A stretch of DNA of 64,000 nt, from IMG/VR virus record IMGVR_UViG_3300025018_002313; one strand, given 5' to 3'. Below, piece after piece: positions 35,721-43,071 of the stretch (within the stretch, counting starts at the first letter, position 1; the number at the start of each line of letters is the position of its first letter). The DNA comes from a virus. The notes below the pieces were generated by a model. It worked only from the letters and a program-made list of their open reading frames with translations. It was not told the origin of the DNA and searched no databases. A program made the translations under genes and the position numbers.

Positions 35721-36359
35721 TCACATAAAGAATAACTCTGACGCAATTTGAGATACTTCAATACCTCGTTTTATGAGATGAGATGATACTTCGTTAATCA
35801 TATCATCCACACCACACAGGTAATATTTGAAGTCTTTATCAATTGGTATGCCTTGTAGAATCCATGGATCCGTAATTCTTTTTGGTCCATGCTCATTCTC
35901 ATCTCGTGATATCGCAATATTTTGATATGGTACATATTCAAATGCCTGTGGATCAAATATCTCCTTACGTGTCCTTACCCCGTAGCATAGCATAAAAGGT
36001 ACATGCTCATAAAATTTCAATGCAGAGAGAAAGGGAGAGATACCTACACCTGTAGCAATATAAACATACTGACCTCTGCTGCAATTTTTACCAGGATGAA
36101 AGTAATTGAACACATCTTCAATTTCAATTTCATTATTGAGATTTTGGTTGAATAAGTAATTTGAAACTCTTCCATTATCCATTTTACGAACTAATAATCT
36201 TATATTATCGTCAGTCGGTGAAGAAGATATACTGTACGGTTTGCCTTTTATCACTACATTGGCACCCGGTTCAAATTCTAGACCGTTTCGATCGAATGAA
36301 ATAGTAAAAACAGTGTCCGTAATTTTTGATATTTGTTGTATCTTATGTTTAGTGCTCAT
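35721..36359 (-). CDS. FAD/NAD(P)-binding oxidoreductase, ferredoxin-reductase-like
   Basis: KPYSISS (RxYS FAD motif) and GVGISPFLS (GxGxxP NAD motif); 212 aa. Confidence 0.5.
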   Translation of the reverse strand: MSTKHKIQQISKITDTVFTISFDRNGLEFEPGANVVIKGKPYSISSSPTDDNIRLLVRKMDNGRVSNYLFNQNLNNEIEIEDVFNYFHPGKNCSRGQYVYIATGVGISPFLSALKFYEHVPFMLCYGVRTRKEIFDPQAFEYVPYQNIAISRDENEHGPKRITDPWILQGIPIDKDFKYYLCGVDDMINEVSSHLIKRGIEVSQIASELFFM

Positions 36360-37006
36360 TATAGATCAATAATACCTATCGGGTTCGCATACTCATATGA
36401 TTCATTAAGTAGACTAACATTGTATACCTTTGTATCGATATCTGGAAATTCATACATCATTCCACCGCCAGCATGGATGTGACCACAAATTACTATCTTA
36501 GGCTTGACACGATAGATATGATCAAGGAGCACTTCATCTCCGACGTGTCCATCATAGCAATGATCTAATAAACCGCAATTAGTAGGAGGTGTATGTGAAA
36601 TTAGAACATCAATGTCCTCTGGTATTAAACTGAATACACGATCACGGAAATTTGCATCTCGGTTGAATCCCCAATCATAAAATCTACGCGACCATGGAGT
36701 ACCCCAGAATTTTACACCATCAACTACACACATGGAGTCTTCTAAGTACGTCCATGATAGCGGCCCGATTAGCCCTGGCTCTACCTCAAAGACTGAATCA
36801 TGATTACCGGCTATACCGATAATCTTTTTAAAATGAGATTCTTGCTTCTCAAGCCATTTTTGAAATTTAGTATTAATCCAAGCAGCTTGACGAGCAAAAT
36901 CTCTACGACCATTAAAAGTGAGATCTCCAGCTATAACTAACACATCTCCTTTCGGAAGTTGTGTAGGTAGTTTAGTATGTGGATCAGATATTGCTATTAT
37001 TCTCAT
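36359..37006 (-). CDS. calcineurin-like metallophosphoesterase
   Basis: Motifs ISDPH, GDLTFNG, GNHD, SHTPP, GHIH in canonical order. Confidence 0.75.
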   Translation of the reverse strand: MRIIAISDPHTKLPTQLPKGDVLVIAGDLTFNGRRDFARQAAWINTKFQKWLEKQESHFKKIIGIAGNHDSVFEVEPGLIGPLSWTYLEDSMCVVDGVKFWGTPWSRRFYDWGFNRDANFRDRVFSLIPEDIDVLISHTPPTNCGLLDHCYDGHVGDEVLLDHIYRVKPKIVICGHIHAGGGMMYEFPDIDTKVYNVSLLNESYEYANPIGIIDL

Positions 37007-37040
37007 TTATTTACCGGATAGTTCTCTAGAATCTGTGCGA

Positions 37041-40253: not shown

Positions 40254-40298
40254 AATAATCTCCTTATTTTCTTAATTATATATGAATCTTGATATAAA

Positions 40299-40805
40299 TC
40301 AAGTATGAATCCAATTCATATAGCTGTGGGTATATCTACCAAATATTCTAACACCACAATAATATACCCATGCATAGGAAAACTCAGTCATTTTTAATAT
40401 CTCGTAAAACTCTTTATCAGCTAATTTACGAGCTTCCGATTTGCTTATTCCCATAGCTGTTGCTAGCTCGTTTATGTATTGATATAGAAAATCATGAACT
40501 AGTGAAGCAGCAAGAGTGTTAGTATATCGACCACTGGTTGGAGTAATTTCAGGCATCCAACCTTCACGGGCAATCGTATCACCTTGCCAGACATACCCAG
40601 AGCAACCATCCCATGCATATGGTTTCTTTATATGAAGGATAGCTTTATTACCCTGTTGATGTACTGAACCAAAATCTACATCTAGAGGATTTAGAACTGT
40701 AATATATTTGAGAGTGTAAGAGTAATCCTTCTCAAGTATGTATACATATTTCGGTATACCAAATAACTTAGAATGACAGATCACACTTACCCCCTGCACA
40801 TGCAA
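40299..40805 (-). CDS. hypothetical protein, DUF1353-like
   Basis: YAWDGCSG...ASLVHDFLYQ recalls DUF1353 signature. Confidence 0.4.
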   Translation of the reverse strand: MHVQGVSVICHSKLFGIPKYVYILEKDYSYTLKYITVLNPLDVDFGSVHQQGNKAILHIKKPYAWDGCSGYVWQGDTIAREGWMPEITPTSGRYTNTLAASLVHDFLYQYINELATAMGISKSEARKLADKEFYEILKMTEFSYAWVYYCGVRIFGRYTHSYMNWIHT

Positions 40806-43071
40806 TAGTCTGTTCTATTGTAGTGTTGTCGTTTTCCTCAGTAAACTCTTCCCATGGTACATCTTTATACTCCCGCTGTAGATCACACCACACTTTCCAA
40901 TTACGAACATCTTTCAAACAGTATGTCATCTTCTTAACATCACCATCAAAATATCTATCCGAAAATTGCTTAGCTCTTCGTATCCATTCTCTCTGTGCCT
41001 GAAATGCATATCCAGGCATTTCAATTATACCGTTGGATGTGGATTGATATCGGAATCGATCACACTGGTCACCGGTAACCGTGTACTCTTTCCAAGTCTT
41101 CTCATATACCTCAAGCGGAATACTTCCATTATTAAGAAGTGCGTCGCAAGCCTTCCAGAGATTATCATCAAAACAACGAAGACCGTCAACAATCAATCCT
41201 GATGCAAACATCGCACCATCACCGTATATATGAACTATCTCAGTAGGTGTAAATACAGCCGTAAATGGCGCTTGTGCATAATCTTTATCACCACTAACTG
41301 GTAGCAACGATATACCAGCAAACCATTGTCTATTACGATAGATATATTTCTCCACCTCATGCCATTCACCTGGCATAACATTGATTGTATTCGATACGTT
41401 ATGACGTAGACAAGGTATAACACTTCTATCTACTCTAGTACCAGCCTCCACCCAATTTTGCTGGGTGAGTTTTACTTTCTCTAATAATGTTATAGCATCA
41501 ACTTGATTTTTTGTAATGGACCCTGGTGGTACTTCACATAGAAATTTAATAACCATATCGGTTTTGTTTGCTGACCAGACAGATTCTTCAACTGCCATAG
41601 GATTAAACTTCTGGAAGAACTGAAGAGCAGGTTCGCGTTTATTAGCTTGTACTAATCTAAAGTACCGTTTGGCATGATGAGCGTGAATACCAGAAGATGT
41701 CCCGAGAATACAACTACTCGTACCGGCTGGCTTTACACAGGTTGTTCTAGCCGCAGTATTAATACCAATTATTTTTGCAATCCGCTCATTTGTCTCCAAA
41801 ATAATCTTCGCACCTCTACGTTGAACTGCTGGATCAAATGCAACATCAGGTGAATCCATCATACCCGTCATCGAGCATCCGAGTAGAGCTTCTCGCTCAA
41901 CAATCTTCTTTGTTGTCTCTCCGAGATACTTAAAATCAGTATAAGCTGCCTGCAGAGTACCGAGTATACCGACACCCCGACACATCTCATAGAAGTCTTC
42001 CAGTGTTTTCGCCTTCTTCATATTCTGTTCACATAGATTACAAAACTGCCATCCAGACTCTCTGCGATTCTCAACATCCCAATATGCCATCATTCCGATC
42101 TCTACACAAGGGTTATAAATAATATCTCTGTCATCGGTCCAGACAAATCCTGGCTCTCCAAACCCTCTTACACTCTTCATTAGATCTGCGAATTGCTCTC
42201 TGCTCGTCTCACTACGGAGCAACAAGGCTGAATTATTTGAACGACCGCGTTGAGGGTTGTGAGCGTTCCAATCTCCTGTCTTAGCGGTAGCCATTTCATT
42301 ATCATCTGGAGAGAAGAGACAAATTGTTGCAGAACGACGAATACCTCCTGAGAGAACGCTATCAGATATGTGCATTATAATATCATATGCTTCAATAGGT
42401 CGGAGCTGTACTTCCCCGTTTCGTGTTGCTGCATCTAAGATCTTAACAATATGCTCCATGCTATTTCTTAGACCTTCAGGACCAGGGGCTTTTCCACCAT
42501 GACTAATAGGAGCACCTGCTGGACGAATTAATGAGTAATCAAAATCAATAACACTATTAGCATAATCTGGGAATGGTTGATTAGAAGTAAAATAGCTTGA
42601 CATTAATGCACCTATTGCATCCGCCCAGCCTTCAATACTATCAGGCACAACAAACTTCTTACGTTTTGCTGCGTTTCTAGGTGCTACAGTAGGCAACTGA
42701 TTGATATGATGCCTCTGAACAGAAAATCCTGCTCCACATCCACATAACAATACATACATAGCTTCTTGAAAAAATCTTGGTCTATCAACATACGAGACTG
42801 TGCAGTTATACATTCGTGCGTTCTTTGATAGTATTGGCTCCCCTCCGAACTGTAATGCACGTTGTGATCCAAGTATTCGTTTCTGATAGAGCATATGTCG
42901 CACGAACTCTATCTCGTCTTTTAATTCAGGAATAAATGGTGCGAACCTAATTAGGTGCATATCTATAACACGATCTACTTGTTCGCGCCATGTCTCTCTT
43001 CTTTTTATTTCTGTTAGGTATCTAGCGTATTTGGAAAACCGTGTATATTCTTGTAAAGCTTTTATTGACAT
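40768..43071 (-). CDS. nrdJ: ribonucleotide reductase, likely monomeric class II (adenosylcobalamin-dependent)
   Basis: Catalytic N-P-C-x-E (IYNPCVEIGMM), N-terminal YARYLTEIKRRETWREQVDRVIDMH like NrdJm, C-terminal Cys pair CAGGKC; no ATP cone, no glycyl-radical motif, no NrdB nearby; start set at ATG 43071 with ggaga RBS. Confidence 0.6.
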   Translation of the reverse strand: MSIKALQEYTRFSKYARYLTEIKRRETWREQVDRVIDMHLIRFAPFIPELKDEIEFVRHMLYQKRILGSQRALQFGGEPILSKNARMYNCTVSYVDRPRFFQEAMYVLLCGCGAGFSVQRHHINQLPTVAPRNAAKRKKFVVPDSIEGWADAIGALMSSYFTSNQPFPDYANSVIDFDYSLIRPAGAPISHGGKAPGPEGLRNSMEHIVKILDAATRNGEVQLRPIEAYDIIMHISDSVLSGGIRRSATICLFSPDDNEMATAKTGDWNAHNPQRGRSNNSALLLRSETSREQFADLMKSVRGFGEPGFVWTDDRDIIYNPCVEIGMMAYWDVENRRESGWQFCNLCEQNMKKAKTLEDFYEMCRGVGILGTLQAAYTDFKYLGETTKKIVEREALLGCSMTGMMDSPDVAFDPAVQRRGAKIILETNERIAKIIGINTAARTTCVKPAGTSSCILGTSSGIHAHHAKRYFRLVQANKREPALQFFQKFNPMAVEESVWSANKTDMVIKFLCEVPPGSITKNQVDAITLLEKVKLTQQNWVEAGTRVDRSVIPCLRHNVSNTINVMPGEWHEVEKYIYRNRQWFAGISLLPVSGDKDYAQAPFTAVFTPTEIVHIYGDGAMFASGLIVDGLRCFDDNLWKACDALLNNGSIPLEVYEKTWKEYTVTGDQCDRFRYQSTSNGIIEMPGYAFQAQREWIRRAKQFSDRYFDGDVKKMTYCLKDVRNWKVWCDLQREYKDVPWEEFTEENDNTTIEQTIACAGGKCDLSF

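Follow-up and report, generated by a model that had tools for sequence, protein, structure and literature searches.

The FolE, QueD and QueE genes of an uncultured T4-like phage are probably the front half of a dispersed DpdA3-type 7-deazaguanine pathway

The window analysed here, a stretch of 64,000 nucleotides (nt) from the viral record IMGVR_UViG_3300025018_002313, encodes FolE, QueD and QueE, enzymes of 7-deazaguanine synthesis. The study centred on positions 35,721-43,071, where queE and queD lie among genes for phosphatases, a reductase, a thymidine kinase and a ribonucleotide reductase (RNR). A sequence-only reading of the window had found neither QueC nor a DpdA-type transglycosylase. 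It proposed either a DNA modification of the dCDG type, ending at 7-carboxy-7-deazaguanine (CDG) and with DpdA encoded elsewhere, or an unusual downstream chemistry. In this study, we present evidence that the three genes are probably the front half of a complete pathway of the DpdA3/fdPreQ1 kind, dispersed over four loci of one T4-like phage genome of about 236 kb. The base fdPreQ1 (7-formamidomethyl-7-deazaguanine) is known from phage immuto, in whose DNA it was measured to replace G fully, and DpdA3 and DpdN were named in the same work (Hutinet et al., 2023; PMC10516641).

A gene set spread along one contig

The window is part of the Logan contig SRR6053076_4915 (171,746 bp), with 0 mismatches over 44,176 overlapping bases in three overlaps; window coordinates equal the record coordinates of this contig minus 58,705. 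The same proteins recur on contigs in NCBI, JGI, Logan and ENA, the longest of which has 236,389 bp, and therefore the genome is about 236 kb long. About half of it (~118 kb) was read, namely the window and flanking loci including L007, L010, L183 and L184 (L-numbers are labels of viral contig loci retrieved for comparison). L183 and L007 overlap with 0 mismatches, and L184, the locus of QueC, lies on the same contig. The window encodes gp32, a T4-type large terminase (TerL), a tail sheath and a baseplate hub, as detected by Pfam. TerL is at most 34% identical to that of any GenBank phage, the best matches being T4-like cyanophages, and no GenBank phage was matched by the region in a megablast search. 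An exact 38-mer search of IMG/VR was likewise negative. The phage is an uncultured, distant T4-like myovirus without a close cultured relative. A scan of GTDB with QueE found only a 51% relative in a metagenome-assembled genome labelled Patescibacteria and gave no host clue, and neither ARAGORN nor Rfam detected tRNA genes or Rfam families in the window.

Within 10 kb to the left of the window lie, in this order, genes for PolB, UvsX, a protein of 100 amino acids (aa), a 268-aa protein, a Formyl_trans_N protein, an AAA_28 protein, QueF, DnaB and a DHH phosphoesterase (Table 1). The 268-aa protein is predicted to be DpdA3. Its closest named counterparts are the immuto 'DNA guanine transglycosylase', with 48% identity along 99% of the protein, and a protein of Campylobacter phage CP220, with 46% identity along 88%; a DpdA3 hidden Markov model (HMM) built in this analysis scores it at 4e-115. 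It keeps the family-invariant Asp of the LDN and DTS motifs (D54/N55, D209), and its identity to the DpdA3 of phage phiST is 28% (E 2e-12). Pfam returned only a sub-threshold DUF6610 match for this protein, which explains why such genes get missed. The putative formyltransferase DpdN adjoins DpdA3, as in immuto; it shares 50% identity with immuto DpdN along 97% of the protein, its remaining tblastn matches are only partial and PurN-like, and its translation shows the PurN-like N/H/D residues (YNGHPGL, VDAGE). QueF matches immuto QueF with E 3e-71, and its translation contains VESKSLKLY and SNCKVTHQPDWG, which we take to be the QueF motif and its catalytic Cys motif, respectively. The order DpdA3 - DpdN - P-loop protein - QueF corresponds to immuto genes 65, 67, 68 and 69. 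The suggestion that DpdA is encoded elsewhere was therefore correct, the DpdA3 gene being part of this contig at 4.5-5.3 kb from the left end of the window. Potentially, genes of this kind could boost queuosine synthesis for host tRNA instead of modifying phage DNA. We give this very little credit, since the DpdA3 is 48% identical to that of a phage with fully modified DNA and DpdN has no role in tRNA queuosine.

Because QueF needs 7-cyano-7-deazaguanine (preQ0), QueC was looked for as well. None was found in the window and both 10-kb flanks. A 239-kb relative in IMG/VR (L028), with a QueE 63% identical to that of this phage, has its QueC 5.5 kb from QueE, and the use of this QueC as query retrieved about 100 phage-type QueC clusters. 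One of them, P0404, sits on SRR6053076_4915, about 46 kb left of the window, with genes for a NADAR protein and then a DUF366 protein after it; it is 57% identical to the QueC of the 239-kb phage. Clusters P0055 and P0063 were also considered as the QueC of this phage and were ruled out, both coming from other phages, and a QueC-clade profile scan of JGI metagenomes retrieved nothing from the sample in which the phage occurs. Thus, FolE, QueD, QueE, QueC, QueF, DpdN and DpdA3 are all encoded on one contig, in four loci that span about 86 kb.

In the window itself, FolE matches immuto FolE with E 1e-74. QueD is longer than ordinary QueD and has the canonical catalytic motif CxxxHGH (CRHIHGH), not the DpdL variant LxxxHRHxF. 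QueE shares 35% identity with its counterparts in Cellulophaga phage phiSM and in haloviruses, and QueD adjoins nearly all of its 27 relatives in IMG/VR. The cluster cysteines of QueE (residues 30-51) are spaced CX3CX16C (CNLMC, 16 residues, C) as compared to the usual CX3CX2C, and this spacing is also kept in L028 and L050. No QueC and no TGT/DpdA was detected in the window by a Pfam scan of all 100 non-overlapping open reading frames (ORFs), no PP-loop motif occurs in its six-frame ORFs, and the DpdA3 and QueC HMMs built in this analysis found no match within it. When DpdA3, DpdL and their neighbours from phiST were used as single-sequence phmmer queries against the window, only FolE and QueE matched. 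The sequence-only reading was accurate on the content of the window: the absence of QueC and TGT/DpdA from the 64 kb holds, and folE, queD, queE and the genes for the tyrosine phosphatase-like protein, the phosphoesterase, the reductase, Tdk and the class II RNR are where it had placed them, as supported by Pfam, NCBIfam, PHROG and motifs.

Proposed route and competing readings

On this gene set, FolE would convert GTP to 7,8-dihydroneopterin triphosphate (H2NTP), QueD would convert H2NTP to 6-carboxytetrahydropterin (CPH4), and the radical-SAM (S-adenosylmethionine) enzyme QueE would form CDG from CPH4. QueC would then turn CDG into preQ0 with ATP and ammonia, and QueF would reduce preQ0 to preQ1 with NADPH. 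DpdA3 would exchange genomic guanine for the deazaguanine base, and DpdN would formylate the aminomethyl group to give fdPreQ1, a modified base that would guard the DNA against restriction. By analogy with immuto, fdPreQ1 would be the product, insertion and formylation would follow the order presumed there, and replacement of G would be full. The contig carries all sequence-level features of the DpdA3/fdPreQ1 kind, namely DpdA3, the set FolE, QueD, QueE and QueC, a QueF with its motifs, and DpdN beside DpdA3.

Several points weigh against this assignment. Instead of fdPreQ1, the DNA may finally contain preQ1 or some other derivative. Further modifying enzymes could sit in the other half of the ~236-kb genome. 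The QueD and QueE belong to a different clade from those of immuto (QueE matches immuto with E 9e-8 as compared to 35% identity to phiSM), and therefore the system is a mosaic. In addition, the activities of DpdA3 and DpdN were never reconstituted, even for the reference phages, and reconstitution of DpdA3, DpdL and DpdN in E. coli has failed so far (PMC10516641).

A phage that stops at CDG without QueC, and either places dCDG in its DNA or relies on the phosphatases and the reductase next to queE for a novel downstream chemistry, would account for the lack of QueC and DpdA in the window. It also has a precedent in phiST, which has FolE, QueD and QueE without QueC, makes deoxy-7-deazaguanosine (dDG) through DpdL and encodes a DpdA3 (PMC10516641). 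We consider such a stop barely credible here, because QueC (~46 kb left of the window), QueF and DpdN (both in the block 2.2-5.3 kb left of it) are found with DpdA3 on the same contig. A pathway ending at CDG is recognised by a missing QueC and a DpdL that is present; this genome has QueC and, within the part read, no DpdL. Neither phmmer and HMM searches with phiST DpdL nor a search for the LxxxHRHxF motif found a DpdL-type QueD paralogue in the window and flanking loci, and the QueD of the window keeps CxxxHGH. An end-point at dDG or dCDG is without support. Moreover, the phosphatase-like gene next to queE was never found beside deazaguanine genes in 80 other loci. A complete QueC/DpdA set elsewhere, which the sequence-only reading had itself named beforehand as evidence against it, is what the contig holds, and the truncated pathway has to be given up. 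Nothing points to the unusual downstream chemistry either, given the known set of QueC, QueF, DpdA3 and DpdN.

Another possibility is that modification takes place partly at the level of nucleosides or nucleotides, before or during replication, with deazapurine nucleotides being processed by the kinase-like AAA_28 proteins, the triphosphate-type RNR, the phosphatases and a GuaC/IMPDH-like protein, so that DpdA3 would not be a simple post-replicative exchanger. Among the loci fetched, 28 have an AAA_28 gene beside DpdA3 or QueE, 17 have a phosphoribosyltransferase gene there and six have MazG, and this phage has two AAA_28 genes and an IMPDH-family gene. Class II RNR homologues occur near DpdA3 in half of the IMG/VR DpdA3 loci (8/16, at a distance of 2-4 kb), and G is fully replaced in DpdA3 phages (PMC10516641). 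However, neither a phosphoribosyltransferase (HMM from 13 phage homologues), the enzyme that would couple CDG or preQ0 to PRPP in a deazapurine nucleoside pathway of the tubercidin/toyocamycin kind, nor MazG was found in the window, L007, L010, L183 and L184, the phosphatase-like gene is unlinked to the pathway, and published work favours post-replicative insertion, every such phage having DpdA (PMC10516641). This phage lends little specific support to a nucleotide-level route, which we regard as unlikely.

Genes beside queE and elsewhere in the genome

The genes for QueE, a tyrosine phosphatase-like protein, a calcineurin-like phosphoesterase and a reductase of the ferredoxin-NADP reductase type (FNR-like) are co-directional, with gaps of 1 nt and 34 nt followed by a 1-nt overlap, and most likely form one transcription unit. 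These and the other genes discussed are listed in Table 1.

Table 1. Predicted genes of the 7-deazaguanine pathway and their neighbours, in window coordinates (negative values lie to the left of the window).
Feature	Position	Strand	Basis
QueC	about -46067..-45327 (record ~12,638-13,378)		PF06508 match on called gene; QueC HMM 3e-55
DpdA3, 268 aa	-5288..-4482		L007 gene calls; homology
DpdN formyltransferase, 180 aa	-4485..-3943		L007 gene calls; Formyl_trans_N 5e-13
AAA_28 P-loop protein, 216 aa	-3930..-3280		L007 gene calls, Pfam
QueF, 371 aa	-3278..-2163		L007 gene calls; QueF_N 1e-35, QueF 3e-22
DnaB	-2163..-808		L007 gene calls, Pfam
DHH/DHHA1 phosphoesterase, 3' end (last 138 bases)	1..138	+	joins window to off-window block
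FolE, GTP cyclohydrolase I	2087..2746	+	Pfam PF01227 GTP_cyclohydroI 2e-48; NCBIfam FolE 7e-48; PHROG 2197 3e-63
FNR-like FAD/NAD(P)H reductase, 212 aa	35721..36359	-	Pfam FAD_binding_6 and NAD_binding_1, both above gathering cut-offs
Calcineurin-like metallophosphoesterase, MPPED2/Rv0805-like	36359..37006	-	Metallophos 2e-11; PHROG 1649
LMW-PTP-like CX5R(S) protein, 106 aa	37041..37361	-	profile of 30 homologues against PDB
QueE, radical-SAM 7-carboxy-7-deazaguanine synthase	37363..38157	-	PHROG 2076 QueE-like 1e-44; five NCBIfam QueE models 2e-17 to 3e-10
Tdk, thymidine kinase	38660..39241	-	TK 7.5e-44; NCBIfam equivalog 241 bits (cut-off 195)
QueD, 6-carboxytetrahydropterin synthase, 190 aa	39681..40253	-	PTPS 1e-25; TIGR03367 QueD 6e-14; PHROG 2389 QueD-like 9e-32
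DUF1353 protein, between QueD and RNR	40299..40784	-	PF07087 1.7e-5; PHROG 1158 9e-19
Class II (B12-dependent) RNR, RTPR-like	40768..43071	-	PHROG 367 1e-103; RNR-II insertion domain (Pfam)

Among the neighbours of queE, the FNR-like protein is the only one with a plausible link to the pathway. Its PYS and TGVGISPF motifs are invariant, and both FAD-binding (RxYS-type) and NAD(P)-binding (GxGxxP) features are present. The family profile matches PDB entries with a best E value of 1e-25 and E. coli flavodoxin reductase (1fdr) with 2e-23 over the full length; bacterial ferredoxin/flavodoxin-NADP reductases are also matched over their full length. About 15 clusters (E below 1e-60) make up its close family. 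The FNR-like gene tracks QueE across lineages: each of the six contexts inspected has QueE no more than two or three genes away, in one of two gene orders. In this phage and L145/L146 (54% identity) the order is QueE - x - phosphoesterase - (HNH) - FNR, and in L050/L051/L054, L144, L188 and L189 (34-42% identity) it is QueD - thioredoxin - QueE - FNR - DpdA3 - ~145-aa protein - AAA_28. A search for further loci related to the FNR-like protein gave nothing with the single sequence, and with an alignment only three contigs already known.

Radical-SAM enzymes including QueE need a one-electron reduction, for which the classical donor is flavodoxin with flavodoxin reductase and NADPH. The FNR-like protein would pass electrons from NAD(P)H, as a reductase of the flavodoxin/ferredoxin type, to activate the radical-SAM cluster of QueE. 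Together with the co-location with QueE and the flavodoxin reductase match, this makes support of QueE the most economical reading, and it is tempting to speculate that this is its function; we put it forward tentatively, at somewhat less than an even chance. Two observations speak against it. The 64-kb window shows no flavodoxin or ferredoxin that could act as its partner; the loci on either side were not screened for such a gene. The FNR-like gene is present in only three of the 27 QueE-type loci in IMG/VR, which makes it an accessory and not a core component.

Alternatively, the FNR-like reductase might serve the adjacent B12-dependent RNR by reducing cobalamin or flavin, or have a general redox function, instead of serving QueE. 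The two genes belong to one strand block and are 4.4 kb apart, flavin reductases of the Fre type are able to reduce cob(III)alamin, and there are weak NCBIfam matches to Fre and LuxG. However, the second gene order has no RNR homologue in flanks of 8-10 kb, yet QueE is always the direct neighbour there, and it is the phosphatase-like gene, not the FNR-like gene, that tracks RNR elsewhere. A role for RNR or in general redox is therefore improbable, and support of QueE stays the preferred function.

The phosphatase-like protein resembles low-molecular-weight protein tyrosine phosphatases (LMW-PTP) and is referred to as PTP-like. It has no match in the Pfam, NCBIfam and PHROG libraries. In 30 homologues the N-terminal phosphate-binding loop C23-SAGLL-R29-S30 (KVLCVCSAGLLRSP) and a C-terminal Asp (D98 in L-x-I-P-D) are invariant. 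With the profile of these homologues, the top 19 PDB matches are all LMW-PTP/YwlE, although weak (E 0.004-0.5), and the length of 106 aa compares with about 150 aa for LMW-PTP. The family has 123 relatives in IMG/VR, of which 80 loci were fetched. Within 8 kb of the PTP-like gene, none of these 80 loci has QueE, QueD, FolE, QueC, DpdA3, AAA_28 or a phosphoribosyltransferase; a class II RNR was found in 16, a calcineurin-like phosphoesterase in 12 and a MazG-like protein in 11. In L145, QueE and the phosphoesterase are separated by a gene of 102 aa that is no PTP homologue, so the PTP-like gene is not conserved even in a syntenic relative. These distributions suggest that it is a widespread phage gene unrelated to the deazaguanine pathway.

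The phosphoesterase matches MPPED2 in PDB with 1e-20 and Rv0805 weakly (0.04). Both MPPED2 and Rv0805 are cyclic-nucleotide phosphodiesterases, and a role in the breakdown of nucleotide signals is possible. Near deazaguanine genes, homologues were found only in immuto (immuto26A_39, 1e-27) and in L145, next to QueE; the other DpdA3 and QueE loci examined have none. Faint NCBIfam matches to anti-phage phosphoesterases were also observed.

Tdk belongs to general nucleotide salvage and stands outside the pathway. The RNR scores 2.5e-56 and 191 bits against TIGR02505 (RTPR), below the equivalog cut-off of 340, and the DUF1353 protein gave no evidence for a pathway role. Like Tdk, the class II RNR, the PTP-like protein and the MPPED2-like phosphoesterase belong to common phage nucleotide metabolism or to other functions, and their genes merely share the location. 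For the neighbours of queE, the sequence-only reading had left the choice between processing of a pathway intermediate and nucleotide metabolism; the second option suits the PTP-like protein and the phosphoesterase, and a pathway role for the PTP-like protein is contradicted by the 80 loci. We consider it unlikely that the four-gene block is a pathway module in which FNR feeds QueE while the phosphatases, AAA_28 and RNR act on phosphorylated deazapurines and modification occurs in part at the nucleotide level before replication.

Other genes linked to the pathway loci deserve mention. Nearly all related viral loci (28 loci) encode an AAA_28 P-loop protein (NadR-kinase-like) next to DpdA3, DpdN or QueE. 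The two copies of this phage are both off-window (L007 5615-6265 and L184 2601-3287), and the immuto copy is annotated as 'thymidylate kinase'. The AAA_28 protein is not discussed in the reference paper (PMC10516641). In the second cluster type, a ~145-aa protein is encoded between DpdA3 and AAA_28 (L050 13183-13545, L144 5587-6018, L188 4756-5202, L189 2547-2972, L141 1290-1739). On visual inspection, this protein, which the present phage lacks, has YLSGSIE...GSGTWGEL motifs reminiscent of nucleoside 2-deoxyribosyltransferases. DUF366 (PF04017) is found one to five genes downstream of QueC in this phage and two other lineages (L184 11473-12081, L028 18136-18738, L141 11731-12315), and may have an accessory role in the deazaguanine pathways of phages that has so far escaped notice. 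Two NADAR-domain proteins were observed, one in the window at 34605-35096 (+), 625 bp from the FNR-like gene and kept in L145, the other directly after QueC (L184 10935-11462).

Outside these loci, the off-window block between gp47 and gp46 (L183 3735-11753, record 36.9-44.9 kb) encodes a glycosyltransferase, a sulfotransferase, WbqC, an IMPDH/GuaC-family protein (338 aa), a dTDP-glucose 4,6-dehydratase and an RmlD-like reductase. This block could serve sugar-nucleotide metabolism and perhaps a second modification of DNA or surface. The gene at window 30791-33283 (+) encodes a protein of 830 aa in which major-vault-protein domains were detected (MVP_shoulder 1e-25, Vault_3 9e-11) and which is kept in L145 (820 aa, with a Band_7 protein nearby); phage vault homologues are unusual. 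The region 46000-54000 has a G+C content of 44-47% as compared to about 38%, and few long ORFs. Four paralogous HNH endonucleases (47831-48310, 52198-52755, 54402-54917, 61118-61690) were noted, as well as three paralogous small proteins sharing W-x-YC-x-x-ER-x-x-KL...FG (48584-48913, 52801-53469, 53675-54334). A ClpS adaptor homologue (49803-50084, -; 2.5e-14) and a DUF2201 putative metallopeptidase (58271-59638, -; 2e-27) are also encoded.

Comparison with known systems

The kind of pathway described here is already known. One point may be new, namely that several phage lineages have a subfamily of FNR-like reductases together with QueE, and this association is the only lead worth following; should the FNR-like protein activate QueE, attempts to reconstitute these pathways would gain a useful component. 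The analysis also illustrates how a pathway that is complete can seem truncated if only part of a large phage genome is read, when DpdA3 is invisible to the Pfam TGT model and the genes are spread over about 86 kb.

With E. coli Fpr (1fdr), the FNR-like protein shares the two-domain FAD/NAD(P)H architecture without an extra Fe-S domain. It is shorter (212 aa as compared to 248 aa) and is tied genomically to a radical-SAM enzyme. Unlike in the flavodoxin/Fpr system of E. coli, no flavodoxin gene was seen nearby, and other phage lineages have a thioredoxin beside QueE. A flavodoxin, ferredoxin or similar reductase partner is not mentioned by Hutinet et al. (2023; PMC10516641).

The likeness to CP220, which has 2'-deoxy-7-amido-7-deazaguanosine (dADG), lies in the DpdA3 match and in both being large myoviruses, and the comparison is carried by the DpdA3 match alone; the QueC variant of CP220 stops at the amide, 7-amido-7-deazaguanine (ADG) (PMC10516641). 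The likeness to phiST is superficial and arises from a partial read, in which FolE, QueD and QueE appear without QueC or DpdA by standard annotation; the DpdA3 of phiST is a remote relative of TGT that Pfam does not pick up. phiST itself was once described as having FolE, QueD and QueE but neither QueC nor DpdA. This genome differs from phiST in having QueC and QueF, with no DpdL found, and in the low identity of its DpdA3.

The closest comparison is immuto, with which the phage shares the gene set FolE, QueD, QueE, QueC, QueF, DpdA3 and DpdN and a homologous phosphoesterase. In immuto these genes lie within about 17.5 kb, as compared to ~86 kb and four loci here. The QueD, QueE and QueC of this phage belong to a clade common to phiSM, haloviruses and huge IMG/VR phages, and not to the clade of immuto. 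Further differences from immuto are that no phosphoribosyltransferase or MazG was found in the ~118 kb, and that an FNR-like reductase is present here whereas the immuto cluster is without one. The present phage has a genome of ~236 kb, is T4-like and encodes PolB, and immuto has a genome of 160 kb and PolA. DpdN was reported to be co-encoded with the pathway in only four sequences, one from a cultured phage and three from uncultured ones (PMC10516641). In summary, the phage described here would be a large, uncultured T4-like addition to the very small set of genomes with DpdA3, DpdN and QueF, the fdPreQ1 type.

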